DNA from: Clostridia bacterium
GTDB lineage: Bacteria; Bacillota; Clostridia; Christensenellales; Aristaeellaceae
Assembly (NCBI GenBank): GCA_017395685.1
Contig: JAFQOD010000073.1
Location: forward strand, 5,341-69,340
Direction: 5' to 3'
Length of the DNA: 64,000 nucleotides
In this document: one piece after another, positions 5,659 to 59,640 of the stretch
Layout of the letters: every line of letters starts with the position of its first letter
How positions within the stretch are numbered: position 1 is the first letter of the stretch
Position numbers and translations under genes: made by a program
Notes under the pieces: generated by a model
The model's input: the letters and a program-made list of their open reading frames with translations, nothing else
Database searches by the model: none
What the model was told of the DNA's origin: nothing

Positions 5659-5664
5659 GGATGG

Positions 5665-8872: not shown

Positions 8873-8896
8873 TATAAATGGGTGGGGAATGGGGAT

Positions 8897-9466: not shown

Positions 9467-9569
9467 AAAATGATTTCCTTCCTTCTGATGAAATTGATCG
9501 CTGCCTGCAGGAAACGGTAAAGTGCTTTTCATCGCATGCAGGGGAATTGTTTGCACTGTATACAGGCAT

Positions 9570-13833: not shown

Positions 13834-14085
13834 GGGGAACCTCCGCTTTTTCTTGACGGTTGATATGGGGTTATTTGCTGAAAAAATGGATTTTGCTTGC
13901 TTCAGTATACAATTTTGCCGGGAAAGTGTCAATGACGGCGGCTGCTGTTTATGGGATGGGGCGGGGAAAGGAGGGGCGGTTTTTCTTTTGTTCTGGATGG
14001 AGGGGGGAAGGGAAGATGCGTTGACGGGGAAATGGAAGTGGAATATAATGGATCGGATAATCCCCCTGCCGGCAGAGGGATGGAA

Positions 14086-43531: not shown

Positions 43532-44413
43532 ATGAAAATGCTTGTCTTTGGATCACTGAATATTGATCATACCTATCGGATGCCCCATCTGGTGCGGGCA
43601 GGGGAAACCCTGGCCTCAGCCAGCTATCAGCGCAATGCGGGGGGCAAGGGCCTCAATCAGACCATTGCCCTGGCCCGGGCAGGGCAGCCGGTTTCCATGG
43701 CCGGGGCCATCGGCGAGGATGGATTATTCCTCAAGGCCTATCTGGATTCCTTTGGGGTGGATACCAGCCTGATCCGCATCTGCGAGGAGGCCACCGGCCA
43801 TGCCATCATCCAGCTGGATGCGGAGGGGCAGAATGCCATCATGCTGTACGGCGGCGCCAATCAGCAGATGACGAAGGAAAGCGTATCCGATGCGCTCAGC
43901 GGATTCGGCCCGGGGGATTATCTGCTTTTGCAGAATGAAATCAACTGCCTGGATGAAATCGTCCGCCTGGCGAAGGAGAAGGGAATGAAGGTCATCCTCA
44001 ATCCCAGCCCCATGAGCGACAGCCTTCCTGCGCTGCTGCCTCAGGTGGATTGGCTGATTCTCAATGAAGTGGAAGGGGCGGATCTGACCGGCACATCCGA
44101 TCCGGATGCCATTGTGGATGCCCTGCTGGCCCGTTATCCCGCCTGCCGCATCGTGCTGACCCTGGGCACCCAGGGATCCATGTATGCAGACGGCGAAAAC
44201 CGGTATTTCCAGCCGGTGATCAAGGTGGAAGCGGTGGATACCACGGCGGCCGGCGATACCTTTACGGGCTTCTTTTTCCAGAGCGTGCTCAGCGGCAGGG
44301 ATATTCCCTATGCCCTCCGTCTGGCGGCCAATGCATCCGCCATTGCGGTAACGCGCCCTGGCGCCGGTGGCTCCATTCCTTCTCTGGATGAAGTGCTTGA
44401 AAAAATGAAATAA
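43532..44413 (+). CDS. rbsK: ribokinase
   Basis: PfkB fold with NxxG and the ribokinase signature AVDTTAAGDTFTG near the C-terminus; 293 aa. Confidence 0.85.
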   Translation: MKMLVFGSLNIDHTYRMPHLVRAGETLASASYQRNAGGKGLNQTIALARAGQPVSMAGAIGEDGLFLKAYLDSFGVDTSLIRICEEATGHAIIQLDAEGQNAIMLYGGANQQMTKESVSDALSGFGPGDYLLLQNEINCLDEIVRLAKEKGMKVILNPSPMSDSLPALLPQVDWLILNEVEGADLTGTSDPDAIVDALLARYPACRIVLTLGTQGSMYADGENRYFQPVIKVEAVDTTAAGDTFTGFFFQSVLSGRDIPYALRLAANASAIAVTRPGAGGSIPSLDEVLEKMK

Positions 44414-46999: not shown

Positions 47000-47824
47000 A
47001 TGGAAAAGATTCTGATCGGTTATCAGCTGTATTCTGCCCGGGAAGAAATGGCCAATGATTTCAGGGGCACGCTGGAAAAGGTGAAGGCCCTTGGCTATGA
47101 TGCGGTGGAATTTGCCGGCCTGTTCGGCAGGGCGCCCGGGGAAATCCGTAAAATGCTGGATGAAGTGGGGCTGACCGCCATCTCTGCCCATGTGCCCTAT
47201 GATGTGATCAGGGCGGATATGGATCAGGCCATCCGGGATTATCAGCAGATCGGCTGCCGGTATATCACCGTTCCCTTCCTGGGGGATCAGGACCGGCCCG
47301 GCGCCCCCGGCTTTGCCAAAGTGATTGCCCTCATCCGTCAGTTCGGGGAAAAATGCAAAAAGGCGGGCATCACCCTGCTCTATCACAATCATGATTTTGA
47401 ATTTGTGCAGGTTTCCGGCATGTACGGCCTGGATTTTTTGTATGATGCGGTGCCGGCGGAATATCTGGAAACGGAAATCGATACCTGCTGGGTGCGCTAT
47501 GCCGGGGAGGATCCCGCCGCCTATATCCGCAGGTATGCTTCCCGCTGCCCCATCGTGCATCTCAAGGATTATGTGGGCGTCAAGGGCGGCGCACAGCCCT
47601 ATGCCCTCATCAATGCGGATGGCAGCGATGACGGAAAGAATGAAAATGTGGCCTTCCAGTTCATGCCCGTGGGATACGGATGCCAGGATGTGGCCGCCAT
47701 CATCCGGGCGGGGCTGGAAAGCGGCGCCCATACCTTCATTGTGGAGCAGGATCAGTGGTATGACCGCCATCCCCTGGAGGCGGCCAGGATGAGCCTGGAA
47801 ACGGTGAAGAGACTGCTGAAATAA
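47000..47824 (+). CDS. sugar phosphate isomerase/epimerase (xylose-isomerase-like TIM barrel)
   Basis: Start MEKILIGYQLYS with RBS GGAGGGA; AP_endonuc_2/XylA-like motifs (AVEFAG, LLYHNHDFEF, HLKD). Confidence 0.8.
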   Translation: MEKILIGYQLYSAREEMANDFRGTLEKVKALGYDAVEFAGLFGRAPGEIRKMLDEVGLTAISAHVPYDVIRADMDQAIRDYQQIGCRYITVPFLGDQDRPGAPGFAKVIALIRQFGEKCKKAGITLLYHNHDFEFVQVSGMYGLDFLYDAVPAEYLETEIDTCWVRYAGEDPAAYIRRYASRCPIVHLKDYVGVKGGAQPYALINADGSDDGKNENVAFQFMPVGYGCQDVAAIIRAGLESGAHTFIVEQDQWYDRHPLEAARMSLETVKRLLK

Positions 47825-47837
47825 AAATGGTGAAAAT

Positions 47838-47868
47838 GCCGGGTCTCCTGCGGGGGGCCCGGTTTTTT
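47838..47868 (+). terminator. rho-independent terminator at end of the long sugar operon
   Basis: GCCGGGTCTCCTGCGGGGGGCCCGG followed by TTTTTT. Confidence 0.6.
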
Positions 47869-47914
47869 GATGGAAGTTTTGCTGCCAGCTTCCACCTTTT
47901 GCGGCCTGGGCTTA

Positions 47915-47943
47915 TTGCTTTTATCATGCCGGAATGATATAAT
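47915..47943 (+). promoter_or_regulatory. candidate sigma70 promoter for the SPFH-TIR gene block in an AT-rich intergenic island
   Basis: TTGCTT, 17-nt spacer, TATAAT. The 150-bp region 47871-48024 is markedly AT-rich against a GC-rich background. Confidence 0.4.
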
Positions 47944-48024
47944 AAATTGATATGTCGTATTTTGTCATAATAATGTATGATTTTTTTAAACTGTCTGTTG
48001 AACGATTGAAAGCGGAGTGAAAAC

Positions 48025-49860
48025 ATGAGTAAATTCATCATTGCCTGCCCGGTCTGCCATAACTATACCCAGGCGTCCACCGGCTTTTTTGCATCCAAGC
48101 ATATCCGCTGCACCTGCGGCCATGTGATCAATGTGAAAACGGAGCGGATGGCCACCATGGCCTGCCCTTCCTGCGGCAATCACGTGGTCTATGATCAGGC
48201 CGAAGGAAAGGATGCCAAGTGCCCGGTATGCCATGCCCAGCTGGTTTCCGATGCCAGCTTCAAGAATCTGGTGCATTTCCGCTGCGGCACCTGCGGCTGC
48301 CAGCTGCATGCTGAAAAGAATGCAAAGCATATTACCTGCCCCATCTGCGATACGGTGGCGGATGTGCAGCAGGAAATCAAAAAGGCGGAGGTGCGGGATG
48401 CCGCCGTTCCCGCCATCATCAATTATGAAGGGGATAATCAAACCTTCGTCTGGAAGCATCCCATGACGGATTTTGTCACCGGCAGCCAGCTGATCGTGCA
48501 TGAAAGCCAGGAGGCGGTATTCTTCCGTAACGGCGAAGCGCTGGATTCCTTCGGCGCCGGCCGCTATACCCTGGAAACCGGCGTGCTGCCCAAGATGGAA
48601 AGCGCGTATAAGCTGCCCATGCAGGGCATGCCCTTCCATGCAGAGGTCTATTTCGTCAATATGACCACCCAGATGGGCATCAAATGGGGCACCCCCAGCA
48701 AGGTGGGCCTGTTTGATCCTGCCACCGGCATGCATGTGGAGCTGGGGGCCTCCGGTTCCTTCAATCTGCGGGTAACCGATGCCCGCCGCCTGCTGGTCAA
48801 ACTGGTGGGCACCACCGGCGGCCTGACCCGGGAGGAAGTATTCGGCCAGAATGGCGCCGGGCATTTCCGTAGCATCATCATGACCCAGGTAAAGGCCCAT
48901 CTGGCCAAGGTGATCAAGGCCAATCATATCAGCGTGCTGGAATTGGACGGCCATATTGATACCCTGTCCGTTGCCCTGCGGGATGCCATCAATCCCATCC
49001 TGGCGGAATACGGCATGGAAATGCCGGAATTCCTGGTCAATAACATTGTTACCCCGGATGATGATCCCAATTTCCGCCGCATGAAGCAGCAGCATGCCGA
49101 TAATTATCTGCGGGTGCGGGAAGAGGAAATCCGCAAGGCAGAGGCGGAGGCCGCCTTTGAGCGCAAGGCCATCGAGGCCCAGACCGCCGCCCGGATGAAG
49201 GTGATCGGCGCCCAGGGAGACGCCGACGTGGTGCGTATCAAGGCCCAGGCGGACGCAGAGGCCTATCGGATGATGGCGGAAGCGGAAGCCCAGGAAATGC
49301 ATATGAAGGGCTATTCTTATCAGCAGGAAACCAGCCGCCAGGTGGGGCTGGAGGCCATGCGGAATATGGGCGCCGGCGGCACTGCCGGTGCAGGCAATGT
49401 AAGCGGCGTTGTAGGGGATATGATGCAGCTGGGCGTGGGCCTGGGCACCATGGGCACCGTGATGGGCGCCATGGGCAGCGTAGTGGGCATGACCAAGGAG
49501 GCCGTCAATCCCGTTCTGCAGCAGGCCGCTGCCATCGGCGGATGGGATTGCGCCTGCGGCCAGAAGGGCATCACCAGCAATTTCTGCCCCGGCTGCGGCA
49601 GCAAAAAGCCCTCTGCCTCCCCCCTGTGGAACTGCGGCTGCGGTCAGCAGGGCATTGCCAGCAATTTCTGCCCCAATTGCGGCGCCAGGAAGCCGGAGCC
49701 CCCTGCCCTGTGGGATTGCGCCTGCGGCCAGCAGGGCATTGCCAGCAATTTCTGTCCCAACTGCGGCGCCAAAAAGCCGGAAGCCTGGGATTGTGCCTGC
49801 GGTCAGAAAGGGATCAAAACCCCCTTCTGCCCCAATTGCGGCGGTAAAAAGGAGGAATAA
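48025..49860 (+). CDS. SPFH/Band-7-like domain protein flanked by zinc-ribbons (3 N-terminal, 4 C-terminal)
   Basis: Three N-terminal CxxC...CxxC ribbons; central SPFH-like domain (NYEGDNQTFVWKHPMTDFVTGSQLIVHESQEAVFF...); coiled coil; Gly/Met-rich segment; four repeats of WDCACGQ(Q/K)GI.SNFCP.CG.KKP. Confidence 0.7.
   Translation: MSKFIIACPVCHNYTQASTGFFASKHIRCTCGHVINVKTERMATMACPSCGNHVVYDQAEGKDAKCPVCHAQLVSDASFKNLVHFRCGTCGCQLHAEKNAKHITCPICDTVADVQQEIKKAEVRDAAVPAIINYEGDNQTFVWKHPMTDFVTGSQLIVHESQEAVFFRNGEALDSFGAGRYTLETGVLPKMESAYKLPMQGMPFHAEVYFVNMTTQMGIKWGTPSKVGLFDPATGMHVELGASGSFNLRVTDARRLLVKLVGTTGGLTREEVFGQNGAGHFRSIIMTQVKAHLAKVIKANHISVLELDGHIDTLSVALRDAINPILAEYGMEMPEFLVNNIVTPDDDPNFRRMKQQHADNYLRVREEEIRKAEAEAAFERKAIEAQTAARMKVIGAQGDADVVRIKAQADAEAYRMMAEAEAQEMHMKGYSYQQETSRQVGLEAMRNMGAGGTAGAGNVSGVVGDMMQLGVGLGTMGTVMGAMGSVVGMTKEAVNPVLQQAAAIGGWDCACGQKGITSNFCPGCGSKKPSASPLWNCGCGQQGIASNFCPNCGARKPEPPALWDCACGQQGIASNFCPNCGAKKPEAWDCACGQKGIKTPFCPNCGGKKEE
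49540..49850 (+). repeat. four in-frame tandem repeats of about 80-90 bp encoding zinc-ribbon units at the 3' end of the SPFH gene
   Basis: Repeated TGGGATTGCGCCTGCGGCCAG...AATTTCTGCCCCAATTGCGGCGCC...AAGCCG. Confidence 0.8.
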
Positions 49861-49863
49861 ACC

Positions 49864-50505
49864 GTGAAACTGACCAAGCATGTCTGGATTCTGTGGGGTA
49901 TTTCGCTGGGGGTTGTGCTGGCCCTGGCCTTTCTCATTCCTTTCCTGCATACGCCTGCTTACTGGGTGGGCCTGGCAGGGATTGTGGTCATGTTCGCCCT
50001 GAGTGCCGGGGTTTTCTATCGTGCCTTCCGGCAGGATGAAAAGCTGGAAAGCAAGCTGCTGGGCTGGCCCATTTTCAGGGTTGCCCTGGTGGGCCTGCTG
50101 GTGCAGGTGTTGGTTGGCTTCATCCTGATGACCTCCTCCGGCCTCTGCCCGCTGTGGGGCGCCCTTCTTGCCGAAATCCTGATTTTTGCCGGGGTATTGA
50201 GCTGCCTTACGGTGCAGGATGCGGCACGGGAAGCTGTGGCGCAGGGGGAAGCCGCCGTCGTCGATCAGACGAAGGCATGGAAGGCCATCCGGGCAAAGGC
50301 TGCGGCCCTGGCCGCCAGGACCGGCGCCCCGGAGCTGAAAAAGCTGGCGGAGGATATCCGTTATGCCGATCCCATGCCCACGGAGCTGGATGCGCAGATT
50401 GCGGCCCAGCTGGAAATGCTGGAAAGCTATGCCGGATCCGAAAATATCATGAAGGCTGTCCAATTGGTGGAGCAAAGAAAATTTGCTGCCAAGCTGGGCA
50501 AATAA
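49864..50505 (+). CDS. hypothetical membrane protein (4 TM helices + amphipathic cytoplasmic tail), translationally coupled to SPFH gene
   Basis: GTG start 4 nt after the SPFH stop with RBS AAGGAGG; hydrophobic N-terminal 120 aa; Ala/Glu-rich helical C-terminus. Confidence 0.6.
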   Translation: MKLTKHVWILWGISLGVVLALAFLIPFLHTPAYWVGLAGIVVMFALSAGVFYRAFRQDEKLESKLLGWPIFRVALVGLLVQVLVGFILMTSSGLCPLWGALLAEILIFAGVLSCLTVQDAAREAVAQGEAAVVDQTKAWKAIRAKAAALAARTGAPELKKLAEDIRYADPMPTELDAQIAAQLEMLESYAGSENIMKAVQLVEQRKFAAKLGK

Positions 50506-50698
50506 TCGAAAATTAATCAGGCAAGAAAAGGGCCGGCGGTCATCTGATCGATCCGCCTTTTTCTTGCTTTTGCATGGCGGGGCGGATGATGCCGCTGCCT
50601 GGAATCGGCCAGAAAAAAAGATCGTATGCGGGTATCACCCGGATCAAAGAAATGGATGAAATGACGGCTCAGGTACGCTGAGGAATGGGAGATTTGTG

Positions 50699-53494
50699 AT
50701 GATTCTGAAATGCAAAATGTGCGGCGGAGATCTGAATATTGAAAATGGCGCAGTCATCTGTGAATGTGAATTCTGCGGAACGATGCAGACCATCCCTGCC
50801 CTGGATAACGAGAAGAAGGGCAATCTGTTCAACCGTGCCAACCGGCTGCGGCGGGCCAGTGAATTTGATAAGGCAGCTGCGGTATACGAATCCATCGTGG
50901 CGGAATTCCCGGAGGAGGCGGAGGCCTATTGGGGGCTTTGCCTGTGCGCCTACGGCATCGAATATGTGGATGATCCCGCCAGCGGCAAAAAGATGCCCAC
51001 CTGCCACCGCACCCGGCAGGGCAGCATCATGCGGTATGAAAATTTCAGCCTGGCCTGTGAGTATGCCGACGCCGTGGCCAAAAAGCTGTACCGGGAAGAG
51101 GCCAAGGAAATCGATCGTATCCAGCAGGCCATCCTGGAAATCGTGGCGGGGGAAGCACCCTATGATGTATTCATCTGCTACAAGGAAACGGGGGCCGACG
51201 GCAGCCGCACGGAGGATAGTGTGCTGGCCCAGGATATGTATGACGCCCTGACAGAGAAGGGGCTGAAGGTATTTTTTGCCCGGATCACCCTGGAGGATAA
51301 GCTGGGGCAGCAGTATGAGCCTTATATTTACGCTGCGCTCCATTCCGCCAGGGTCATGCTGGCAGTGGGCACCTCATTCGAGCATTACGATGCGGTCTGG
51401 GTGAAGAATGAATGGAGCCGCTTTATCGGCATGATGAAGGAAGACCGCAAGAAAATGCTGATCCCCTGCTTCAAGGGCATTGACGCCTATGATATTCCCG
51501 AGGAATTCCAGGGGCTGCAGGCCCAGGATATGGGAAAGCTGGGCTGGCTGCAGGATCTGACCCGGGGGGTCATGAAGCTGTGCGGTAAAGATCAGCCGCT
51601 TCCTGCGGTATCGCAGCCGGTATCCCTTTCCGGCCAGCCGGCAGATCCCCTGATCCGCCGTGCCATGATTGCGTTGGAGGATGGGGATTTCAGGAAAGCG
51701 GATGAATTGTGCGAACAGGCCCTGAATCTGGAACCGGAAAATGCCCGGGCCTATCTGTGCAAGCTGATGGCGGAATTGCAGGTGCGCAGGCCGGAGCAGC
51801 TGGCCAAGCAGAATAAGCATTTCGATAACAGAAATAATTATAAGAAAATTCTTCGCTTCGGCGATGACGCCCTCAAGGCCCAGGTGCAGGGCTATCATCA
51901 GGCTATTATTGACCGGCAGGAAAATGAACGGAAAGAAGGCATCCTGCAGAGCGCCATGCAGCTGCTGAATCGTGCCCAGTCCTATCAGGCTTTCCTGGGG
52001 ATCAGGGAACAGGTGCAGCAGAAGCTGGCTTCCGTTGCCGGCCTGGAGGCCGTAAAGGAAATTGAACGGGCCTTCCTGGAAAAGGGCCAGGCCCTGCAGG
52101 AGGCTCAGTATCAGCTGGCCCGGGAAAAAATGGCCCGGATGGATTGGGAGGGCGCCAGGGCGGCCTTCCTGATTCTCAAGGGTTACCGGGACAGCCGGGA
52201 AATGGCGGAGCGGTGCCGGGAGGCTGCCCTCAGCGCCGCCTATGAAAATGCCCGGGTGCTGATGAACCTGCAGAAATATGAGGCGGCAGAGGCGGCATTT
52301 GCCAAACTGGAGGATTATCAGGACAGCCGGAATATGGCGGCCCGGTGCCGTGATGAGGCAAAAAAGCAGCTGGCCGCTCAGCAGAAAGCTGAGGAAGAGG
52401 AGCGGCAGCGGCAGCTGGCCGAAGAAAAGAAAAGGGCCGCAGCGGCAGCCAGGAAAAAATGGATCCTTGCAATTGCGGTGCTGGCAGTGGCCGCAGCGGC
52501 AGCCTTTTTCTTCGTATCTTCCAGGGCAACTGCCACCAAGGAAAACTATGAAAGGGCCGAGGCGCTGCTGGCGGAAGGAAAAGAAATGGAAGCGCTGGCC
52601 CTGTATCAGAAGGCGGGCAATTATCAGGAAAGTATGGCCCGGCAGCGCAGCATCCTTTCTTCCCTGGCTGTCAAATTGGATGCAGGGGATAAGCATACCC
52701 TGGGGCTGCAAACCAATGGTAACATGAAAACGGCGGGCAGCAATGACAGCGGCCAGTGCTATGTAAGCATGCGCTATTCCGGGAATCTTGTGGCCGTTGC
52801 CGCCGGCGGCTATCATACCGTAGGCCTGAAAGCGGATGGCACGGTGGTAGCGGAAGGCGATAATGATTATGGCCAGTGCAATACCCGCGCCTGGAAGGAT
52901 ATTAAGGCCATTTCTGCCGGCGCTTTCCATACTGTGGGGCTGAAAGCGGATGGCACGGCGATTGCAGTTGGCGAGAAAAGCGGCGGCTATTTCAGCAAAG
53001 GCCAGAGCAATGTGGCATCCTGGCGGAATCTTGCCGCCATTGTGGCCGGCGGATACCATACCGTGGGCCTGAAAACGGATGGCACGGTGGTGGCGGTAGG
53101 GGATAATGAAGAGGGCCAGTGCAATGTGGGCGCCTGGCGGGGTATTGTGGCCGTTGCCGCCGGCTCTGCGCATACCGTGGGCCTGAAAGCGGATGGCACG
53201 GTGGTGGCTGTGGGACGCAACAGCGTCAAGCAGTGCAATGTGAGCGGCTGGCGGGATATCGTGGCCATTGAATGCGGGGATTATTATACCCTGGGCCTGA
53301 AGGCGGATGGCACGGTAGTGGCCGTGGGCGCCAATGCGGATGGCCAGTGCAAGGTAAGCGGATGGCGGGATATTGTGGCCGTTTCCGGCGGCAATTCCCA
53401 TACCGTGGGCCTGAAAGCCGATGGCACGGTGGTGGCCGTGGGCAGCAATATGGATTTCAAATGTAATGTGGATGAATGGGATCTTATCAAATAA
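50699..53494 (+). CDS. multidomain protein: N-terminal zinc ribbon - TIR domain - coiled-coil/TPR-like region - predicted TM helix - RCC1-like beta-propeller repeats
   Basis: Zinc ribbon KCKMCGGDLN...CECEFCG. TIR block YDVFICYKET...GLKVFFARITLEDKLGQ...VMLAVGTSFEHYDAVWVKNEWSRF (conserved Glu in WxKNEW at 51410-51412). Hydrophobic WILAIAVLAVAAAAAFFFV at about 52461-52517. C-terminal repeats like HTVGLKADGTVVAVG-N-GQCNVSGWRDIVAV (RCC1-like). Confidence 0.8.
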   Translation: MILKCKMCGGDLNIENGAVICECEFCGTMQTIPALDNEKKGNLFNRANRLRRASEFDKAAAVYESIVAEFPEEAEAYWGLCLCAYGIEYVDDPASGKKMPTCHRTRQGSIMRYENFSLACEYADAVAKKLYREEAKEIDRIQQAILEIVAGEAPYDVFICYKETGADGSRTEDSVLAQDMYDALTEKGLKVFFARITLEDKLGQQYEPYIYAALHSARVMLAVGTSFEHYDAVWVKNEWSRFIGMMKEDRKKMLIPCFKGIDAYDIPEEFQGLQAQDMGKLGWLQDLTRGVMKLCGKDQPLPAVSQPVSLSGQPADPLIRRAMIALEDGDFRKADELCEQALNLEPENARAYLCKLMAELQVRRPEQLAKQNKHFDNRNNYKKILRFGDDALKAQVQGYHQAIIDRQENERKEGILQSAMQLLNRAQSYQAFLGIREQVQQKLASVAGLEAVKEIERAFLEKGQALQEAQYQLAREKMARMDWEGARAAFLILKGYRDSREMAERCREAALSAAYENARVLMNLQKYEAAEAAFAKLEDYQDSRNMAARCRDEAKKQLAAQQKAEEEERQRQLAEEKKRAAAAARKKWILAIAVLAVAAAAAFFFVSSRATATKENYERAEALLAEGKEMEALALYQKAGNYQESMARQRSILSSLAVKLDAGDKHTLGLQTNGNMKTAGSNDSGQCYVSMRYSGNLVAVAAGGYHTVGLKADGTVVAEGDNDYGQCNTRAWKDIKAISAGAFHTVGLKADGTAIAVGEKSGGYFSKGQSNVASWRNLAAIVAGGYHTVGLKTDGTVVAVGDNEEGQCNVGAWRGIVAVAAGSAHTVGLKADGTVVAVGRNSVKQCNVSGWRDIVAIECGDYYTLGLKADGTVVAVGANADGQCKVSGWRDIVAVSGGNSHTVGLKADGTVVAVGSNMDFKCNVDEWDLIK

Positions 53495-53530
53495 CCGTTC
53501 ATCCGGATATACCAAAGGAGCAAATGATCC

Positions 53531-56356
53531 ATGATCCTGAAATGCAAAATGTGCGGCGGGGATCTGAATATTGAAAATGGGGCAGTCATCTGCGAATGTG
53601 AATTCTGCGGAACGATGCAGACCATCCCTGCCGTGGATAATGAAAAGAAGGGCAATCTGTTCAATCGTGCCAACCGGCTGCGGATGGCCAGCGAATTTGA
53701 TAAGGCGGCCGCGGTATACGAATCCATCGTGGCGGAATTCCCGGAGGAGGCGGAGGCCTACTGGGGGCTTTGCCTTTGCGCCTATGGCATCGAATATGTG
53801 GATGACCCTGCCACGGGGAAGAAAATGCCCACCTGCCACCGCACCCGTCAGATTTCCATCATGGATGAAAATAATTTTGATATGGCCTGCGAATATGCGG
53901 ATGGGGTGGCCCGGAAATTATACCGGGAAGAGGCCAAGGAAATCGATCGTCTGCAGCGGGCGATCCTGGAAATTGTGGCAGGGGAAGAGCCCTATGACGT
54001 ATTCATCTGCTATAAAGAAACGGACGAGGACGGAAGCCGCACGGAGGACAGCGTGCTGGCCCAGGATATGTATGACGCCCTGACAGAGAAGGGACTGAAG
54101 GTATTTTTCGCCCGGATTACCCTGGAGGATAAGCTGGGGCAGCAGTATGAGCCCTATATTTATGCTGCGCTCCATTCTGCCAAGGTGATGCTGGCGGTGG
54201 GCACCTCATTCGAGCATTACGATGCGGTCTGGGTGAAGAATGAATGGAGCCGCTTTCTGGCCATGGGCAAGGAGGATCATCACAAGACGCTGATCCCCTG
54301 CTTCAAGGGCATTGATGCTTATGATATCCCCCGTGAATTCCGCAATCTGCAGGCCCAGGATATGGGAAAACTGGGCTGGCTGCAGGATCTGACCCGGGGG
54401 GTTATGAAGCTGTGCGGCAAGGATCAGATAGCCCCTGCCCCCATTGCCCCCGTTCCCGCAGCGGTGATGGCGCCCATGATGGGGGGCAATGCCCTGGGCC
54501 TGATCAAGCGCATTTTCATTTTCCTGGAGGATAAGGCCTGGGATACCGCCGATGAATATTGCGAAAAGGTGCTGGATTTGGATCCGGAATGCGGCGAGGC
54601 CTATCTTGGCAAGCTGATGGCAGCGCTGCGGGTGAGCAGGCGGCAGGATCTGGGCGATCTGGCCAAGCCCTTTGACGAAAATGCCCATTATCAGAAAATC
54701 CTTCGCTACGGTTCCGCCGCCCTGAAGCAGGAAATGCAGGGCTGCCTGGATCGCATTCGTGCCGCCAGAATGGAAAGAATATATCAATCCGTCAGGCAGG
54801 ATATGGCCGGCGCTGCAGATGCGGCCCAATGGCTGAAGCTGGCCCGGCGATTGGAAGAAATTACGGGGTATAAGGATGCGGATCAGCTGGCGGAGCAGTG
54901 CATGCAGAGGCATAACGAATTATCCCTGGAGGAAGGCTATCAGCAGGCTTTGTCTGTCATGCAGAGGGCGGCATCGATAAGGGATTATGCCGATGCGGCC
55001 TGGAAATTTGAAGCGCTGCAGGATTATCGGGATGCCCCCCATCTGCGGGAGGAATGCATGCGCCTGGGCCGGGAGCTGGCCCAGCGGCAGGAGGAGGCCC
55101 GGCTGCTGGAGGAAAAACGGCAGCGGGAGGCGGCCGAGCAGCAGGAAGCCCAGCGCAGAAAAGAGGAAGAATTGAAAAAAGCCCAGGAAGAGAAGATGGC
55201 CAATGGGCAGAAGAAGGGCAGAATTTTCAAGGATCTGCTGGTCTGCTCCCCCAATGCGAAACTGCCCCTGCATGCGGCGGTAACATCCTCCGGCCAGGTG
55301 TGCGTCTCCAACTGGGATGAATACCGGAATACCCTGACCTCCTGGCAGCGTATCTATGCGGTCTCCCTGGGTGAATTTCATGCCCTGGGCCTGAGAACGG
55401 ATGGGGCGGTCGTGGCATCCGGGGATAATCAGTACGGCCAGAACAATGTGCAGGGCTGGAAAAATATCATCGCCATTGCTGCCGGCGGCTGGCATTCTGT
55501 GGGCCTCGGGGCAGACGGCACGGTGGTGGCAACCGGCAATTATGAATACGGGCAATGCGACGTCAGGGGCTGGAAGGATATCATCGCCATCGCCGCCGGC
55601 AAAAATCATACCGTGGGACTGAAAAAGGATGGCACGGTGGTGGCGACCGGGCTGAGGATCAACGGCCGGTGCGATGTGGGTTCCTGGCGGGATATTGCCG
55701 CAATCTATGCCTTCAACGGCTATACCGTGGGCCTGAAAAAAGACGGCACCGTGGAATGCACCGAGGAAAAATTCAGGAATTCCGCCTGGCGGAATATCGT
55801 GGATATCGCCACCGGCTATGAATATATCCTGGGCCTGAAAAAGGATGGCACGGTGGTATCCGCCGGCGCCTCCGAAAAAGGGCAGTGCCGGGTGGGCGAG
55901 TGGAAGGATGTGGTGGCCGTCAGCGCGAAAAACTGCCACAGCGCTGCCCTTCGGCTGGATGGCACCGTCTGCGTCACGGGATATAACGGATACGGCCAAT
56001 GCGATGTGCAATCCTGGCGGGATATCGTGGCGGTGAGCGTAGGGGATTTCTGCACCCTGGGCGTCCGGCGCGATGGCACCGTGCTGATGGCCGGCCGGGA
56101 TAACAGACAGCCCTATACCCAATTGAGCAAATGGGGCCATCTGTTTGATAACGATGATGCCTATTGCCGGGATCGGGAGGAAAAATGCAAGCGGATGATG
56201 GAGGACGCCCTGGAGCGTCTGCACATCCAGGAGCAGGAGGCCCATGCCCGGCAGGAACGCCGCAGCAGGGGCGTATGCCAGCATTGCGGCGGGGAATTCA
56301 AAAAAACCCTGTTTGCATTCAAATGCTGCTCCTGCGGCCGGGCCAGGGATTATTGA
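53531..56356 (+). CDS. paralogous zinc ribbon - TIR - coiled-coil - RCC1-repeat protein with C-terminal zinc ribbon (no obvious TM helix)
   Basis: The first ~300 aa are nearly identical to the upstream gene (~93% nt identity over ~330 bp aligned by eye) and include the same TIR motifs. The middle is divergent and Gln/Glu/Arg-rich; RCC1-like repeats follow; terminal CQHCGG...CCSCG. Confidence 0.8.
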   Translation: MILKCKMCGGDLNIENGAVICECEFCGTMQTIPAVDNEKKGNLFNRANRLRMASEFDKAAAVYESIVAEFPEEAEAYWGLCLCAYGIEYVDDPATGKKMPTCHRTRQISIMDENNFDMACEYADGVARKLYREEAKEIDRLQRAILEIVAGEEPYDVFICYKETDEDGSRTEDSVLAQDMYDALTEKGLKVFFARITLEDKLGQQYEPYIYAALHSAKVMLAVGTSFEHYDAVWVKNEWSRFLAMGKEDHHKTLIPCFKGIDAYDIPREFRNLQAQDMGKLGWLQDLTRGVMKLCGKDQIAPAPIAPVPAAVMAPMMGGNALGLIKRIFIFLEDKAWDTADEYCEKVLDLDPECGEAYLGKLMAALRVSRRQDLGDLAKPFDENAHYQKILRYGSAALKQEMQGCLDRIRAARMERIYQSVRQDMAGAADAAQWLKLARRLEEITGYKDADQLAEQCMQRHNELSLEEGYQQALSVMQRAASIRDYADAAWKFEALQDYRDAPHLREECMRLGRELAQRQEEARLLEEKRQREAAEQQEAQRRKEEELKKAQEEKMANGQKKGRIFKDLLVCSPNAKLPLHAAVTSSGQVCVSNWDEYRNTLTSWQRIYAVSLGEFHALGLRTDGAVVASGDNQYGQNNVQGWKNIIAIAAGGWHSVGLGADGTVVATGNYEYGQCDVRGWKDIIAIAAGKNHTVGLKKDGTVVATGLRINGRCDVGSWRDIAAIYAFNGYTVGLKKDGTVECTEEKFRNSAWRNIVDIATGYEYILGLKKDGTVVSAGASEKGQCRVGEWKDVVAVSAKNCHSAALRLDGTVCVTGYNGYGQCDVQSWRDIVAVSVGDFCTLGVRRDGTVLMAGRDNRQPYTQLSKWGHLFDNDDAYCRDREEKCKRMMEDALERLHIQEQEAHARQERRSRGVCQHCGGEFKKTLFAFKCCSCGRARDY

Positions 56357-56384
56357 GGAATGCTGCATTTTCCAGCAATGAATA

Positions 56385-56419
56385 AAAAAGCCGGGCTTCC
56401 GCAATGGAAGCCCGGCTTG
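56385..56419. terminator. bidirectional rho-independent terminator
   Basis: AAAAAAGCCGGGCTTCCGCAATGGAAGCCCGGCTT with A/T runs on both sides, between convergent genes. Confidence 0.7.
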
Positions 56420-56470
56420 CTTATATGGATTTTTTCATCTGCCGGAAAGCGGCGATGAAAGATGGGTGCA

Positions 56471-56791
56471 TCAGCCTTCGATGGCGGTCCGGATCCGCTG
56501 GATCACCTTGGCGGCCATTTTCTTGGGCAGGCCGCCGAAGATGCCGTCCAGGTTCATTTCGCCGCCCACGGTGCCCTTTACCCAGCCCTCAATATGCAGC
56601 GTGGCATGATCCACAGGGATCAGGCGGATATAGCGCACGGCAGCCCAGGCGGCGTTGCCGTTCTTCCATACGCTCTGGCCGTTTTCCTGGATATAATCGT
56701 ATTTTTCCTCCCGCAGGATTTTTTCTGCGGTCTGGATGGCGGCGCAGGCATCCTGGCATTTGATGATGTAAGTGGTTCTGGCCATGGGCAT
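56471..56791 (-). CDS. hypothetical protein
   Basis: 106-aa ORF with GC-typical codon usage and terminator downstream; no family recognised. Confidence 0.45.
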   Translation of the reverse strand: MPMARTTYIIKCQDACAAIQTAEKILREEKYDYIQENGQSVWKNGNAAWAAVRYIRLIPVDHATLHIEGWVKGTVGGEMNLDGIFGGLPKKMAAKVIQRIRTAIEG

Positions 56792-56806
56792 CCTCCTGAC
56801 AAATGA

Positions 56807-58153
56807 TTATTCTTTCACAAACTGCAGCACATTTTCCACATGCCCGGTATGGCAGAACATATCCACGCTCTGGCATTTGGTCACATGGTAGCCGTGGGCA
56901 CACAGGTATTTGGCGTCCCGGGCCTGGGTGGCCACATCGCAGCTGACGTATACGATGCGTTTGGGGCCTGCCTGGGCGATGGCGGCAAGCACCTTTTCTT
57001 CGCAGCCCTTCCGGGGAGGATCCAGCACCACCACATCCGGCCGCAGCCCCTGCTGCACCATCTGGGGCAGCAGATCCTCCGCCGCAGCGGCATAAAAGCG
57101 GGCGTTTTCCACGCCGTTGACCCTGGCATTCTCCTCCGCATCCCGGATGGCCTCCGGCACGATTTCAATGCCGATTACCTGCTTTGCCTTCCGGGCCAGC
57201 AGCAGGGAAATGGTGCCTGCGCCGCAGTACAGATCGGCAACCAGCTCATCCCCGGTCAGCTCTGCAAAATCCAGGGCGGTCTGATACAGCGTTTCCGTCT
57301 GCACAGGATTCACCTGGAAGAAGGAAAGGGGGGAGAGGGCATAGCGGAAGCCGCAGAGGGTATCCTGCAGCCTTTCTTCGCCGAAAAGCAGCCGGTTTTC
57401 CAGGCCCAGGATCACATTATCCCCCCGCTTGTTCACATTCAGATACAGGGAAGAAAGCCCCGGCACCCCCGCCCGCAGCATGGCGGTTAATTCCCGCTCA
57501 TGGGGCAGGGTATTCTGGGTGGCCACCACCACCGCCATCACCTGGCCGGAGCGGGATACCCGGCTCATGATATGACGGATCAGGCCCTTCCGGCTCTGCT
57601 CCTCATAGGGGGCAATCTGGAATTTTTCCATCCACAGCCGGAAAACGGCCAGCACCTGATCGCTCTCTTCCCTTGCAATCAGGCATTTTTCTACATCAAT
57701 GATCCTGTGGCTGCGGGGGGCAAAAAAGCCGATCTGGGGCGTTCCCTTCACGCCGCCTACCGGCAGCGCCGTCTTATTGCGGTAATGCCAGGGATTTTCC
57801 ATGCCTTTGACGGGAGGCACATCAATGGAAAGGCCCCCCAGCCGGGTCAGTGCATCCTGCACCCGCGCCCGTTTCATTTCCAGGGAGAGGGGATAGGCCA
57901 TATGCTGGCATACGCAGCCCCCGCATTTTTCATAATAGGGGCAGGGGGGATGGATGCGCTGGGGATGGGCATCCACAACCTTCAGGGTCTTGAGAAAGGC
58001 ATGGGTCTTTTCCACCCGCTGGGCCCGGGCAATCACCTTTTCTCCGGGCAGCGCCCCCTGCACAAATAAGGTCATCCCCTCCAGATGGGCAATGCCCATT
58101 TCGCCGCCGAAGCGCTCGATGGTGAGGGTCAGTTCGTCATTTTTTTTCAACAT
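56807..58153 (-). CDS. rlmD: 23S rRNA (uracil-5-)-methyltransferase RlmD/RumA family (TRAM + SAM-MTase)
   Basis: TRAM domain N-terminus; 4Fe-4S Cys cluster CPYYEKCGGCVCQHM; SAM motif DLYCGAGTISL; catalytic Cys near the C-terminus (DMFCHTGHVE). Confidence 0.85.
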   Translation of the reverse strand: MLKKNDELTLTIERFGGEMGIAHLEGMTLFVQGALPGEKVIARAQRVEKTHAFLKTLKVVDAHPQRIHPPCPYYEKCGGCVCQHMAYPLSLEMKRARVQDALTRLGGLSIDVPPVKGMENPWHYRNKTALPVGGVKGTPQIGFFAPRSHRIIDVEKCLIAREESDQVLAVFRLWMEKFQIAPYEEQSRKGLIRHIMSRVSRSGQVMAVVVATQNTLPHERELTAMLRAGVPGLSSLYLNVNKRGDNVILGLENRLLFGEERLQDTLCGFRYALSPLSFFQVNPVQTETLYQTALDFAELTGDELVADLYCGAGTISLLLARKAKQVIGIEIVPEAIRDAEENARVNGVENARFYAAAAEDLLPQMVQQGLRPDVVVLDPPRKGCEEKVLAAIAQAGPKRIVYVSCDVATQARDAKYLCAHGYHVTKCQSVDMFCHTGHVENVLQFVKE

Positions 58154-58170: not shown

Positions 58171-59640
58171 TTATTTCCGGATGGTATATTGGATTTTATT
58201 CGCTACGCAATAGTCTTCCCCGGCGCTGCCCTCCTCCACGCTGACGGTGAGCAGATTGCATTCCGCAAAAATATTTTTGCCAAGGGTGGTAACGCCGGCG
58301 GGCAGATTGATCTTTTTCAGCTTGCTGCAGCCCCAGAAGGCCCCCTGATCCAGCTGCTTCAGCCCATCCGGCAGCGCAATTTCGGTAAGCGCCCCGGCGT
58401 CATGGAAGGCATACTGGCCGATGGCGGTGAGGGAGGCGGGCAGATTGATCTGTCTGAGGGCATAGCAGGATGCAAAGGCCCTTTCCTCAATGGCGGTAAG
58501 GCTCGTTGGCAGGGTGACCGTTTCCAGGGCGGTGCAGCCTCTGAACATATTTTTCCCAAGGATAGTAATGGATTCGGGGATCACAATTTCCTTCAGATTC
58601 CGGCAGTCGGTGAAGGCGGAATTGCCCAGGGATTGCAGCCCGGAGGGCAATTGAACGGATTCCAGCTCTTTGCACGAATCAAAGGCGCAGGAATCAATGG
58701 CGGCCAGGGAACCGGGAAGATGAATGGATTGAAGTGCGGTGCAGTTGTAAAAGGCATAGGTGCCGATGGCTTCAAGGCCCTCCGGCAGGATAACCTGCTG
58801 CAGCTTATTGGCGTCGGCAAAGGCCCACTCGCCGATGGAGCGCACCCCTTCGGGCGCCGTAAAGGAGGCGCCTTCCAGGCCGGAGGGATAGGAAATGAGG
58901 GAAGCGGTCTGCTTATTGTAGAGCACGCCGTCAATTACCTCAAATACCGGATGATTTTCATCCGCCTCAAGGGTCAGGCGATAGCATCGTGTGAAAGGAT
59001 TGGGCCCGATGGCGGTAATACTGCTGTGGATGGTAAGGCCTTTTAAATGGCTGCAGCTGCTGAAGGCGGAATCCTCGATGGTATGGATGGATTGGGGCAG
59101 GGCAATTTCCTCCAGGGAGGAGCAGCCGCTGAACATGGCGAAGGGGATTTTTTCCATGCTCTTGGGCAGGGTGACGGATTTCAGGCTGCTACAGCCCGAG
59201 AAAACGCTGGTGCCGATTTCAGTAACGCTGTCGGGGATTACGATGCTCGCCAGCGATTCGCAATCGGAAAAGGCGGCGCTTTCAATGGTGGTCAGCCCCT
59301 TGGGCAGGGTGACGGATTTCAGGTTCTTGCAGCCGTCAAAGGCGTTCCTGCCGATGGTGGTGACGGTATCGGGCAGGATCAGTTCCTTCACGGTGTAGGG
59401 ATGATAGAGGGCATGGGCGCGGAAGGCCTCGCTCCCGATGGCCACCACCTTTTTTCCGTAGAGCTTGGAGGGGATCCTCAGCGTTTCGGGCAGTGTATCC
59501 TTATAGCCTGTGACAGCCACGCCTCCAGGCACATTTTCTACCGTAAAGCTGTGGAAAAAATAATTGCCGGTGAGGATGTATACCCCCGCCATCATCAGCA
59601 GGGATGCGACGGCAAAGAAGAGGGTCAGCTTTTTTTTCAT
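58171..59640 (-). CDS. BspA-type leucine-rich-repeat surface protein with N-terminal membrane anchor
   Basis: About 18 tandem 23-aa repeats (L.SV.LP.SLT.IG..AF..C..L); N-terminal MKKKLTLFFAVASLLMMAGVYIL. Confidence 0.75.
   Translation of the reverse strand: MKKKLTLFFAVASLLMMAGVYILTGNYFFHSFTVENVPGGVAVTGYKDTLPETLRIPSKLYGKKVVAIGSEAFRAHALYHPYTVKELILPDTVTTIGRNAFDGCKNLKSVTLPKGLTTIESAAFSDCESLASIVIPDSVTEIGTSVFSGCSSLKSVTLPKSMEKIPFAMFSGCSSLEEIALPQSIHTIEDSAFSSCSHLKGLTIHSSITAIGPNPFTRCYRLTLEADENHPVFEVIDGVLYNKQTASLISYPSGLEGASFTAPEGVRSIGEWAFADANKLQQVILPEGLEAIGTYAFYNCTALQSIHLPGSLAAIDSCAFDSCKELESVQLPSGLQSLGNSAFTDCRNLKEIVIPESITILGKNMFRGCTALETVTLPTSLTAIEERAFASCYALRQINLPASLTAIGQYAFHDAGALTEIALPDGLKQLDQGAFWGCSKLKKINLPAGVTTLGKNIFAECNLLTVSVEEGSAGEDYCVANKIQYTIRK

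Follow-up and report, generated by a model that had tools for sequence, protein, structure and literature searches.

TIR domains are a currency of immunity common to bacteria, plants and animals. To our knowledge, the bacterial TIR systems described so far work in the cytoplasm, with nucleotide-sensing, Argonaute or STAND partners. Among SPFH proteins, YdjI of B. subtilis combines a PF13421 domain with C-terminal zinc ribbons and has as partners YdjG, a zinc-ribbon/TM protein, and YdjH, a membrane protein (PMC8581546, PMC11237479); YdjI-type proteins are known to act in the physiology of envelope stress rather than in immunity (PMC8581546). In other phyla there is a precedent for putative antigen sensors that are diversified by DGRs and coupled to TIR effectors, in the form of STAND NTPases or MoxR-vWA ternary systems of Proteobacteria and Cyanobacteria (PMC10907252).

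The window, the whole 64-kb stretch of DNA analyzed here, comes from an uncultured gut Clostridia bacterium and encodes two neighboring TIR proteins, A and B, whose genes are the final pair in a cluster of four at 48025-56356 (Table 1). The first-pass annotation had taken the two-gene tandem as the unit; that must be replaced by a unit of four, which includes genes for an SPFH/zinc-ribbon protein and a 4-TM protein. The four genes are probably a single transcription unit, since terminator-like hairpins flank the cluster and there is one good promoter-like site, 50 nt upstream of the SPFH gene.

Table 1. Features of the four-gene cluster, in window coordinates
Feature	Coordinates	Strand	Description
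Terminator-like hairpin, 5' border	47838..47863	+	ends upstream sugar-isomerase gene; 11-bp stem, 8 GC pairs, T-run
Best sigma-70-like promoter match	47947..47974	+	TTGATA-16-AATAAT, 10/12; consensus match only
SPFH/Band_7_1 protein	48025..49860	+	611 aa; PF13421; NCBI MBQ4075907 'SPFH domain-containing protein'
4-TM membrane protein	49864..50505	+	213 aa; 4 nt after SPFH gene; NCBI MBQ4075908 'hypothetical protein'
TIR protein A	50699..53494	+	931 aa; membrane-anchored paralog; NCBI MBQ4075909
A zinc ribbon and helical adaptor, residues 1-151	50699..51151	+	model pLDDT 91
A TIR domain, residues 152-295	51152..51583	+	
A WxxxE motif, W234-V-K-N-E238	51398..51412	+	E238 codon 51410-51412
A linker, residues 316-583	51644..52447	+	all-helical, TPR-like and coiled-coil; secondary structure from model, pLDDT about 90
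A predicted TM helix, residues 588-607	52460..52519	+	signal-anchor, N-terminus inside; from hydropathy, family charge bias and model
A RCC1-type beta-propeller, residues 659-915	52673..53443	+	seven blades, predicted extracytoplasmic
TIR protein B	53531..56356	+	941 aa; soluble paralog; NCBI MBQ4075910
B TIR domain, residues 152-295	53984..54415	+	E238 codon 54242-54244
B RCC1 propeller region, residues ~600-860	55328..56110	+	about 48% identical to that of A
B C-terminal zinc ribbon, residues 916-935	56276..56335	+	CxxC-12-CxxC
Palindromic terminator-like hairpin, 3' border	56388..56418	.	strong; 13-bp stem, 9 GC pairs; 32 nt past ORF B

The SPFH protein scores 134.6 bits against PF13421 (cut-off 24). 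It has N-terminal zinc ribbons (CxxC at residues 8, 47, 66, 87 and 105), four C-terminal zinc-ribbon repeats (CxxC at 521, 549, 577 and 602) and a Gly/Met-rich segment, and it has no TM segment. The 4-TM protein, with helices predicted to start near residues 7, 34, 70 and 99 and a soluble helical tail of ~95 aa, matched no Pfam family. The locus resembles PspA-YdjGHI in pairing a Band_7_1 SPFH protein that has a C-terminal zinc-ribbon region (CxxC 521-605) with a small membrane protein, and in having partner proteins that start with a zinc ribbon and in some cases contain a TM segment (PMC8581546, PMC11237479). It differs in the TIR and sensor domains of these zinc-ribbon partners, which YdjG lacks, and, unlike YdjI, the SPFH protein has the extra N-terminal zinc ribbons and as many as four C-terminal ones. 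Neither PspA nor a TPM-domain YdjH family was found in genes within about 10 kb, and the 4-TM protein lacks a TPM domain. A TPM_phosphatase gene, with the domain of YdjH, is present in one related cluster.

Protein A consists of a zinc ribbon, a helical adaptor, the TIR domain, a TPR/coiled-coil linker, a TM segment and a seven-bladed RCC1 propeller. The ribbon is CxxC-14-CxxC (C5, C8, C23 and C26), its cysteines invariant in the family, and the adaptor is modeled as three TPR-like helices, a beta-hairpin with a conserved PTCHR motif at its end, and a long helix. The linker gave a weak TPR_2 match at residues 316-348. Protein B has an A-like N-module, a diverged helical linker, an RCC1 propeller and a C-terminal zinc ribbon, and no TM segment. 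The two align without gaps from residue 1 to ~300 at 91% amino acid identity and, over 897 nt, 88% nucleotide identity, confirming the positions and the near-identical ~300-aa N-termini proposed for these neighboring paralogs; the first-pass figure of ~93% over ~330 bp is right in being high, but is nearer 90% across that stretch. Identity is uneven, ~94% over the first 270 nt and just 71% over the following 90 nt. Past residue 300 the proteins have diverged as described, to about 31–35% identity in the helical linker and about 48% in the propeller. Of the two origins that had been offered, recent duplication is unsupported, because the shared module has already reached a synonymous divergence (dS) of about 0.46; the data fit an old duplication with purifying selection (dN/dS 0.14 in the N-module, versus about 0.5 in the propeller) and patchy gene conversion.

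Both TIR domains match Pfam TIR_2 (PF13676) at residues 157–279, with 38.4 bits for A and 38.1 for B against a curated cut-off of 28; ten relatives score 41–47 bits. The domain has the flavodoxin-like TIR fold and matches TIR domains, the NADases SARM1 and AbTIR among them. A and B share the motif VWVKNEW. Its W234 and E238 are invariant in all 125 family members covering the position, and so are R170, D173, S174, E207, K236 and N237 (125–127 members scored per position). In a sequence alignment with a weak E-value of 0.2, E238 falls on the Glu of the 'WCLMELAEIV' segment ('LMEL') of the L6/L7 plant TIR, which we take to be the catalytic Glu. This alignment and the invariance agree with the earlier placement of the motif's Glu at the catalytic position of NAD+-cleaving TIRs. 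Adaptor TIRs do not have this Glu; for NADase activity it is necessary, not sufficient. By inference, the TIRs of A and B would be enzymes that cleave NAD+ or produce an NAD+-derived signal, inactive as monomers. Compared with ThsB of Thoeris, TIR-SAVED, TIR-STING, TIR-APAZ of SPARTA, SpbK, AbTIR and SARM1, there is no ThsA, SAVED, STING, Argonaute or cyclase here; the TIR is joined instead to a zinc ribbon and a helical adaptor peculiar to this family, and its partners are SPFH and 4-TM proteins.

The hydrophobic segment noted between TIR and propeller in A, and only there, is residues 588–607, WILAIAVLAVAAAAAFFFVS, with a mean hydropathy of 2.69 and RKK just before it; the maximum in B is 1.34. 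In the model it is the start of an isolated helix (593–625), not buried core, and across 40 single-TM family members K+R averages 5.9 before the TM and 1.6 after it, a positive-inside bias. Both lines agree with a transmembrane segment, and they predict a topology with the TIR inside and the propeller outside. The propeller is modeled as seven groups of three strands with pLDDT above 90. RCC1_2 (cut-off 22 bits) matches A at 172 bits with seven significant repeats and B at 129 bits with five, so that the profile searches put both the TIR and the RCC1 assignments above cut-off. B ends, as had been noted, in a second zinc ribbon and has no TM. In the family at large, 75 of 127 members have no TM and about 60% are fully cytoplasmic; C-terminal zinc ribbons occur in 21 of the 75 TM-less members and in none of the 52 with a TM.

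The topology of A had been likened to that of a Toll-like receptor. The likeness holds in that a repeat-domain sensor is predicted outside and the TIR inside, with a single TM helix between them, and it extends to B, the soluble paralog encoded beside A, which shares almost all of its TIR-module sequence with A and would correspond to MyD88. It fails for the order of the polypeptide, since A has an N-terminal TIR, a signal-anchor TM and a C-terminal sensor. The sensor of A is an RCC1 propeller where TLRs have an LRR solenoid; homology is confined to the TIR, and the TIRs of A and B keep the catalytic-type Glu that TLRs and MyD88 lack. We therefore reject membership among Toll-like receptors and keep the comparison as an analogy only.

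The zinc-ribbon-TIR-sensor architecture is not rare. Species-representative genomes contain at least 521 stretches that match the TIR module, which falls into thousands of protein clusters, is very common in gut and rumen Clostridia and is annotated merely as 'TIR domain-containing protein'; with thousands of homologs of the module, the features of A and B are not chance. The zinc-ribbon/adaptor part is joined to a TIR in 180 of 182 cases. Of 78 genome loci, 50 have an SPFH homolog beside the TIR gene, usually accompanied by a 4-TM gene, on the same strand and in varying order; there is no SPFH gene nearby in the other 28, some of them with full 10-kb flanks. The reverse search, from SPFH, found the TIR module in 14 and the 4-TM gene in 13 of 15 loci with enough flank. 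Homologs of the 4-TM partner co-occur at 23–50% identity. Arrays of 2–5 TIR paralogs were present at 36 of 78 loci, and membrane and soluble forms are mixed in 19 of 32 multi-copy loci. SPFH, 4-TM protein and 1–5 TIR paralogs together represent a widespread uncharacterized system of gut and rumen Clostridia; we found no published description of this gene cluster in the literature.

The C-terminal domains of 95 members were RCC1 (37), DUF6273 (20), and also TPR, LRR_5, WG, MORN, Flg_new and Ank. C-terminal domains are swapped between relatives across the family; in the closest genome relative (L002) the N-module is 82% and the SPFH protein 74% identical, and the C-terminus is unrelated. DGRs often diversify surface-displayed ligand-binding proteins. 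In one related species a complete cassette of bAvd, template repeat and reverse transcriptase follows a TIR-DUF6273 gene within an SPFH-MEM cluster. Four samples each had their own set of adenine-site substitutions in the target, with the remaining gene 98–99.4% identical. A variable repeat (VR), a template repeat (TR) with adenine-specific mismatches, and nearby RT and Avd genes occur in relatives L011, L088, L091 and L111. The proposal of a constant module on variable sensors thus has strong backing across the family, with a DGR acting on the sensor in one related species. The window itself has no TR/VR pair within its 64 kb, and A and B are not DGR targets; A is essentially invariant within the species, exact on 11 contigs plus one single-substitution variant. 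The relatives are like the described DGR antigen sensors in that a C-type-lectin-like domain, here DUF6273, is hypermutated on a TIR-effector protein (PMC10907252, PMC7159879, PMC7517822). They are unlike them in being NTPase-free, hosted by gut Clostridia and partnered with SPFH, and A and B have RCC1 and no DGR.

Known defense systems were sought with PADLOC-DB v2.0.0 (library dated 2023), which gave no system match above threshold for any of the four proteins; its sole match was B to PDC-S66, sub-threshold at E 1.3e-4 and 19.6 bits. No NCBIfam defense family scored above threshold. Thoeris was rejected: there was no PADLOC Thoeris match, ThcB4 matched at 16–18 bits against a cut-off of 220, and the neighbors are SPFH and 4-TM genes. 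Sensors of the STAND/NLR-like kind (Avs, bNACHT) were rejected as well, with no Pfam NTPase domain and an all-helical TPR/coiled-coil stretch between TIR and propeller. The cluster is chromosomal; none of 50,697 phage records or 72,556 plasmid records contains it, and among 2.9 million viral contigs a single one does, at the contig edge. Its flanks are mostly metabolic or housekeeping genes, and only about 5–7 of 74 sampled flanking ORFs match defense models, so it is not a typical defense-island resident. The survey of homologs for a defense setting bears out sensor variability and not defense-rich flanks. Conflict-type genes (HEPN, AbiH/SIR2_2-like, AbiEii-like AAA_21) do occur occasionally inside related clusters. 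We know of no established phage-sensor role for RCC1 propellers.

We give an even chance to the cluster being a TIR sensor system that is associated with the membrane, cleaves NAD and probably serves immunity. Ligand bound by the C-terminal propeller, on the extracytoplasmic side for A and the cytoplasmic side for B, would cause the N-modules to oligomerize, and mixed assemblies may form because the N-modules of A and B are kept 91% identical; oligomerization would switch on TIR catalysis. An SPFH oligomer, tethered by the 4-TM protein, could form a platform or cage beneath the membrane, where zinc-ribbon contacts would concentrate the TIR proteins or hold them in check. The most likely role would be to recognize invaders, whether phage or other molecules from foreign sources or competitors, and then to deplete NAD+ or send a signal. 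The immune or abortive-infection pattern recognized in the first-pass annotation survives as a constant module on variable sensors; the defense role stays conditional, and the sub-threshold PADLOC match, the housekeeping flanks and the invariance of A weigh against it. The family, very abundant in dominant Clostridia of human and animal guts, is set apart from known TIR systems by a catalytic-type TIR behind a TM helix with a predicted external sensor, by soluble paralogs alongside, by a genetic tie to an SPFH membrane scaffold, and in some species by a DGR-hypermutated sensor. If immune, it would bring extracellular or envelope-level sensing into bacterial immunity, give a function to the poorly understood YdjI-type SPFH proteins and add a new substrate class for gut-microbiome DGRs; if not, it would point to a physiological signaling role for bacterial TIR enzymes.

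A more specific proposal, which we offer tentatively and would sooner doubt than accept, is NTPase-free prokaryotic pattern recognition in the manner of TLRs and their adaptors. In gut Clostridia, signal-anchored TIR receptors with a ligand-binding domain exposed outside and soluble TIR paralogs that monitor the cytoplasm would co-assemble, through their homogenized zinc-ribbon/TIR module, on an SPFH microdomain platform and so switch on NAD+ chemistry, with receptors rewritten by DGRs in some lineages. If true, this would be a new class of system and the first functional SPFH-TIR link, with a germline-encoded, continuously diversified receptor repertoire.

Signaling of envelope or membrane stress, not immunity, is an unlikely alternative to an immune sensor system. 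SPFH and 4-TM proteins would form a YdjI/YdjH-like sub-membrane assembly, with the zinc-ribbon-TIR proteins as YdjG-like reporters of disturbances to the cell wall or membrane; in an elaboration that we likewise think unlikely, polymers of the envelope would be the ligands of the outer propeller, and within normal physiology the TIR would serve to make an NAD-derived signal or tune NAD+ levels. The YdjI architecture of the PF13421 protein with its C-terminal zinc ribbons (PMC8581546, PMC11237479) speaks for this, as do the TPM_phosphatase gene of the one related cluster, the chromosomal site with housekeeping flanks, the spread through the whole class and the invariance of A within its species. 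Missing, however, are a PspA gene in the window neighborhood and a TPM domain in the 4-TM protein, and the fully cytoplasmic majority of members fits it poorly. Massive paralog expansion, swapped repeats, a DGR-mutated sensor and the HEPN, AbiH/SIR2 and AbiEii-like inserts are instead hallmarks of conflict systems.

That the TIR is a non-enzymatic assembly domain of the MyD88/TIRAP kind, its N-modules scaffolding C-terminal repeats and their ligands onto SPFH with no NAD+ chemistry, strikes us as distinctly improbable. The near-identical N-modules of the paralogs are what a homotypic interaction surface would predict, and the cluster conserves no dedicated downstream effector to read a TIR-made signal. 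Against these stand the invariant WxxxE Glu, absent from adaptor TIRs, and the six other invariant residues. Least probable are surface proteins for host or community interaction, whether RCC1, DUF6273 or LRR adhesins and glycan binders or a released Tcp-like TIR interfering with host TLR signaling: the gut and rumen commensal hosts, the typically surface or receptor-binding BspA-type LRR, Flg_new and DUF6273 domains and the common action of DGRs on displayed ligand binders suit them, but a cytoplasmic location is predicted for the TIR, the zinc ribbons and most of the full-length proteins, TM-less members carry intracellular features (ankyrin repeats, C-terminal zinc ribbons), there is no linked signal peptide or secretion apparatus, and this reading does not account for the tie to an SPFH protein inside the cell.

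Sub-threshold Rfam matches at the 3' border of the cluster were set aside as the terminator-like hairpin itself. For A, an in-frame GTG at 50696 is a possible start; the ATG three nucleotides on (50699) is the one used by NCBI and by homologs.

ORF A and ORF B lie adjacent on the same strand, 36 nt apart in the ORF listing, and BLASTP aligns their products end to end, at ~91% identity and without gaps over the first ~300 residues and with a gap-rich remainder; tblastn gave 91% over 299 aa. Profile searches, proposed as a check in a first-pass annotation, placed TIR_2 at residues 157–279 of both proteins (38 bits, Pfam cut-off 28) and RCC1_2 repeats in each (172 bits in A and 129 in B, cut-off 22), so that the paired zinc-ribbon-TIR-RCC1 genes described there are confirmed by ORF listing, BLASTP and Pfam alike. 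At the DNA level the pair shares a single 897-nt segment with 88% identity; its first 270 nt reach ~94%, so the earlier estimate of ~93% over ~330 bp is fair for the extreme 5′ end. Downstream of this segment there are just short matches of 72–90%, RCC1 repeat to RCC1 repeat. Two differences between the copies were also seen correctly: only A has a strongly hydrophobic 19–20-residue segment (588–607, hydropathy 2.69, against a peak of 1.34 in B), and B ends in a second zinc ribbon, CxxC-12-CxxC. A family profile (A1) run against PDB sequences left the TIR part unmatched, and its apparent match to designed WD40 repeats was discarded as spurious, a sum of 3–5-bit matches.

The earlier annotation treated A and B as a two-gene tandem. 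They are adjacent, but the real unit is larger, with two further genes upstream encoding an SPFH (Band_7_1) protein and a protein with four transmembrane helices (4-TM), for which no known family was found in Pfam or NCBIfam. At NCBI the four are consecutive records of a Clostridia MAG, MBQ4075907-910, named 'SPFH domain-containing protein', 'hypothetical protein' and twice 'TIR domain-containing protein'. In an Rfam scan of 47300–57000, neither a riboswitch nor a leader scored above the gathering threshold. Sub-threshold matches at 56382–56511 (ylbH leader, 29 bits against 50; SorX, 26 against 47) fall on the terminator hairpin after ORF B and are most likely due to chance.

Features of the four-gene cluster in the window and of related loci (L-numbers)
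Locus	Feature	Coordinates	Position	Description
Window	Terminator-like hairpin	47838-47863	upstream edge of cluster	
Window	Best promoter-like site	47947-47974	upstream of cluster genes	
Window	SPFH (Band_7_1) gene	48025-49860	same strand as and upstream of A	611 aa, ~3 N-terminal and 4 C-terminal zinc ribbons
Window	4-TM gene	49864-50505	same strand, 4 nt after SPFH gene	213 aa, four TM helices
Window	ORF A	50699-53494	same strand as B	931 aa (ORF listing)
Window	ORF B	53531-56356	same strand as A	941 aa (ORF listing)
Window	13-bp hairpin	56388-56418	downstream edge of cluster	
L011	DGR repeats	4741-4863 and 5476-5598		
L088	Variable repeat (VR)	12397-12506		
L088	bAvd accessory gene	12700-13164		
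L088	Template repeat (TR)	13197-13306		
L088	Reverse transcriptase (RT)	13556-14605		
L157	TIR and SPFH genes	5001-9943	end of contig	IMG/VR UViG 3300023505_000289, sole viral-collection contig with the module

Linkage of these genes extends well beyond the window. We scanned species-representative genomes with the N-module, the ~300-aa unit of zinc ribbon, helical adaptor and TIR shared by A and B, and obtained at least 521 matching stretches, from which we retained 78 loci. Their hosts belong to Oscillospiraceae, Acutalibacteraceae, Christensenellales, Ruminococcus, Lachnospiraceae, Blautia and Pseudoflavonifractor, and most are gut and rumen MAGs; cultured carriers include Pseudoflavonifractor capillosus An827 (L034) and a Blautia (L078). 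An SPFH homologue was found within the flank in 50 of the 78, on the same strand and usually with the 4-TM gene coming after it; in these 50 the SPFH/4-TM genes stand before, after or between the TIR genes. Two to five TIR paralogs were present in 36 loci. The reverse test used the SPFH protein as query on metagenomes. Of 15 loci in which the SPFH gene was complete and followed by 3.5 kb or more of sequence, 14 contained the TIR module and 13 the 4-TM gene. The zinc-ribbon/helical sub-module was followed by TIR in 180 of 182 cases, and there were no TIR matches without it.

An AlphaFold2 model of residues 1–304, built with 58 homologues as input (mean pLDDT 91), shows in order a short-hairpin zinc ribbon, three TPR-like helices, a beta-hairpin ending in a conserved PTCHR, a long helix and a flavodoxin-like domain. 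In a phmmer search of PDB, 'AVWVKNEWSRF' aligned on 'SKWCLMELAEI' of the flax L6/L7 TIR at a weak E-value of 0.2, setting E238, the Glu of the WxxxE motif, on L6 E135, the residue that is catalytic in plant TIR NADases. SARM1 and AbTIR share the W-x-x-x-E spacing. W234, N237, E238 and W239 are invariant in all 125 family members (proteins with the N-module) that cover these positions, with position 236 a K in 121 and an R in 4; all four zinc-ribbon cysteines are kept in 126–127 of 127 complete members. The full-length model of A (pLDDT 86, pTM 0.40) is all-helical at 316–583, of low confidence at 579–602, and forms a seven-bladed propeller at 659–915. A long isolated helix (593–625) spans most of the hydrophobic segment, which in this model is thus not buried in a globular core.

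Family members fall into membrane and soluble classes: of 127 complete proteins, 75 have no TM helix, 40 have one at approximately residues 330–650, and 12 have several. Where there is a single TM, K+R average 5.9 in the 15 residues preceding the helix and 1.6 in the 15 following it, a strong positive-inside signal in these sequences, pointing to an N-in, C-out topology. An independent second line is the distribution of C-terminal zinc ribbons, found in 21/75 TM-less members and 0/52 TM-containing members. Both lines place the zinc-ribbon/TIR module of A very probably in the cytoplasm and its propeller outside; B is very probably wholly cytoplasmic. The Toll-like-receptor topology suggested earlier for A thus holds as an analogy, with TIR inside and propeller outside, but the order along the polypeptide is reversed. 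Both classes include RCC1 propellers: 18 follow a TM helix and 26 are in TM-less proteins. Membrane and soluble paralogs stand together in 19 of 32 multi-copy loci, as they do in the window.

The proposal of a constant module on variable sensors was borne out. Searched against Pfam, 95 C-terminal regions showed RCC1 in 37, TPR in ∼31 and DUF6273 in 20, with a few LRR_5 (BspA), WG, MORN, Flg_new and ankyrin matches; an additional sample of members held two ankyrin proteins and several without a known domain. The closest genome relative, L002, has 82% identity in the N-module and 74% in SPFH, with a C-terminus unrelated to that of A or B. When the full-length sequence was searched, NCBI contained the identical protein, with the next-best relative just ~53% identical overall. 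Within its species protein A is near-invariant, exact on 11 contigs with one single-substitution variant. Single-linkage clustering of the C-terminal regions gave one component only, joined through common coiled-coil/TPR segments. CIDE-N matches in 6 of the 95 C-termini, which seemed to offer an apoptosis-adaptor link, were rejected: they map inside RCC1 blades (for example P0192 residues 605–635), contain no significant stretch of their own, and are artefactual, produced by the 'DGTVV' repeat motif. A regular-expression hunt made alongside this question found nothing. At L155:10001-13640, a 512-aa TIR protein ends in FtsK_gamma, and the next gene opens with FtsK_gamma ahead of its RCC1 repeats. 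This reflects either one gene that is split or frameshifted, or a pairing mediated by the winged helix; similar truncations may account for many family matches of 530 aa or less.

A recent duplication, as had been supposed for A and B, is contradicted by a dS of 0.46 in the N-module (dN 0.064, ratio 0.14). In the linker and propeller dS is 0.9–1.5 and dN 0.5–1.0. Third-position identity is uneven along the N-module, 0.87–0.90 in some 30-codon blocks and 0.53–0.63 in others, and among 86 paralogs from multi-copy loci, the nearest N-module is at the same locus for 25, the window pair included. We read these substitution patterns as an old duplication under strong purifying selection, with recurrent N-module gene conversion or lineage-specific duplication.

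Because DUF6273 is known as a C-type-lectin-like target of diversity-generating retroelements (DGRs) in gut phages (PMC10743442, PMC11792537), all loci were screened for pairs of repeats whose mismatches fall specifically at adenines. Four loci gave a signal; the same screen found no such pair in the window. In L011 the VR lies within the final ~50 codons of its TIR-DUF6273 gene. The TR comes after a bAvd gene, and of 18 VR/TR mismatches 17 are at template adenines. The L088 locus reads SPFH, 4-TM, HEPN, a giant TIR-DUF6273 gene, bAvd, TR and RT (RVT_1), the giant being an 1829-aa zinc-ribbon/TIR/TPR/DUF6273 protein with the VR at its end. A complete DGR within SPFH/4-TM/TIR clusters targets the C-terminal DUF6273 of TIR-family proteins. 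In four samples of the L088 species, the gene is 98–99.4% identical outside the VR, and the VR of each sample carries a distinct set of 7–13 substitutions, nearly all of them at template adenines; the three samples that yielded the template have it in almost identical form. Sample-specific changes at adenine sites against a near-constant template indicate active hypermutation of the C-terminal domain of the TIR protein. We found no published account of DGR-diversified TIR proteins in Clostridia in our literature searches. L091, L111 and L086 also count among the DGR-bearing TIR loci. The 203-aa HEPN-domain protein of L088 (6438-7049; 25 bits, cut-off 22), encoded between the 4-TM and giant genes, could be an extra RNase effector of that cluster variant.

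PADLOC and NCBIfam gave nothing above cut-offs for the four window proteins, and feature tests on these proteins rejected membership in Thoeris, STAND/NLR and TLR. Literature searches, from whose scope most subscription papers fell out so that absence is no proof, found neither a bacterial TIR linked to SPFH/Band-7/flotillin nor, on TIR with RCC1 and SPFH with anti-phage defence, a description of the system; RCC1-TIR combinations in the literature searched were confined to eukaryotes. The 'Tir' of a PSP paper was rejected as a TIR link, since it denotes the CesT/Tir chaperone. The nearest concepts each have one element in common with the window system: TIR effectors of bacteria that act as enzymes; putative antigen sensors that are diversified by DGRs and come with TIR effectors, in the STAND or MoxR systems found in multicellular bacteria (PMC10907252); and YdjI, the SPFH protein with a zinc ribbon that the PspA operon of B. 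subtilis encodes (PMC8581546, PMC11237479). The window system belongs only to the TIR and RCC1 superfamilies and, by its partner gene, to the Band_7_1 family. The finding is real, and richer than first described. Among TIR-based sensor-effector systems it is best placed as a variant, set apart by its SPFH/4-TM partnership and fixed zinc-ribbon adaptor, and further by membrane-spanning and soluble paralogs and by modular sensors, DGR-diversified in some species. An immune interpretation is plausible; its main rival is a role in envelope stress. The overall mechanistic picture of this putative TIR sensor system has, in our judgement, about an even chance of being right.

The genomic setting is not a classical defence island, yet conflict-type genes recur. 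Annotated neighbourhoods of the window, L081, L154 and L156 hold chiefly metabolic and housekeeping genes; upstream of L155 are Schlafen-like, ABC_ATPase and DEAD-helicase genes. Among 74 ORFs lying no more than 6 kb from a cluster, only ~5–7 match PADLOC models; a single Pycsar pair and PDC-S01 are in this set. Genes occasionally found within clusters encode DUF2971, AbiH/SIR2_2-like, AbiEii-like AAA_21, TPM_phosphatase and small zinc-ribbon proteins. DUF2971 accounts for 5 of 31 non-family ORFs inside clusters (L028:10981-11838 and four other loci; alignment A5), and the TPM_phosphatase gene, in one cluster, has the domain of B. subtilis YdjH. The N-module was absent from phage and plasmid records and present in 1 of 2.9 million viral contigs, at the contig edge together with SPFH; these L157 genes are probably host DNA beside a predicted prophage.

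Several neighbouring genes were noted. At L153:13899-14771 (the L031 region) a 290-aa gene that weakly matches AbiH and SIR2_2 lies between TIR-RCC1 and SPFH genes, and after the 4-TM gene come RCC1 (529 aa) and DUF6273 (600 aa) genes that stand alone, with no TIR. In L081 (980-3908), from a common human-gut species, HSP70-family (703 aa) and MZB (PF09369) genes stand directly 5′ of a TIR-TPR-DUF6273 gene, after which come SPFH, 4-TM, TIR and DUF6273 genes, possibly an enlarged form of the system. ADP-ribose is a product of TIR NADases. Pfam places a 702-aa ADP-ribosylglycohydrolase-family gene (~38749-40857, plus strand) in the window, 7–10 kb upstream of the cluster, with a PfkB sugar/ribokinase gene (43532-44413, plus strand); its link to TIR chemistry may be coincidence. 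In L156 a NAPRTase gene and an adjacent HTH_11/3H-domain regulator gene, which we read as NiaR-like, lie ~6–8 kb from the cluster. The window gene at 58171-59640, on the minus strand and so not on that of the cluster, encodes a 489-aa protein that carries no Pfam mark and has an N-terminal hydrophobic segment and, by eye, ~23-residue leucine-rich BspA-type repeats.
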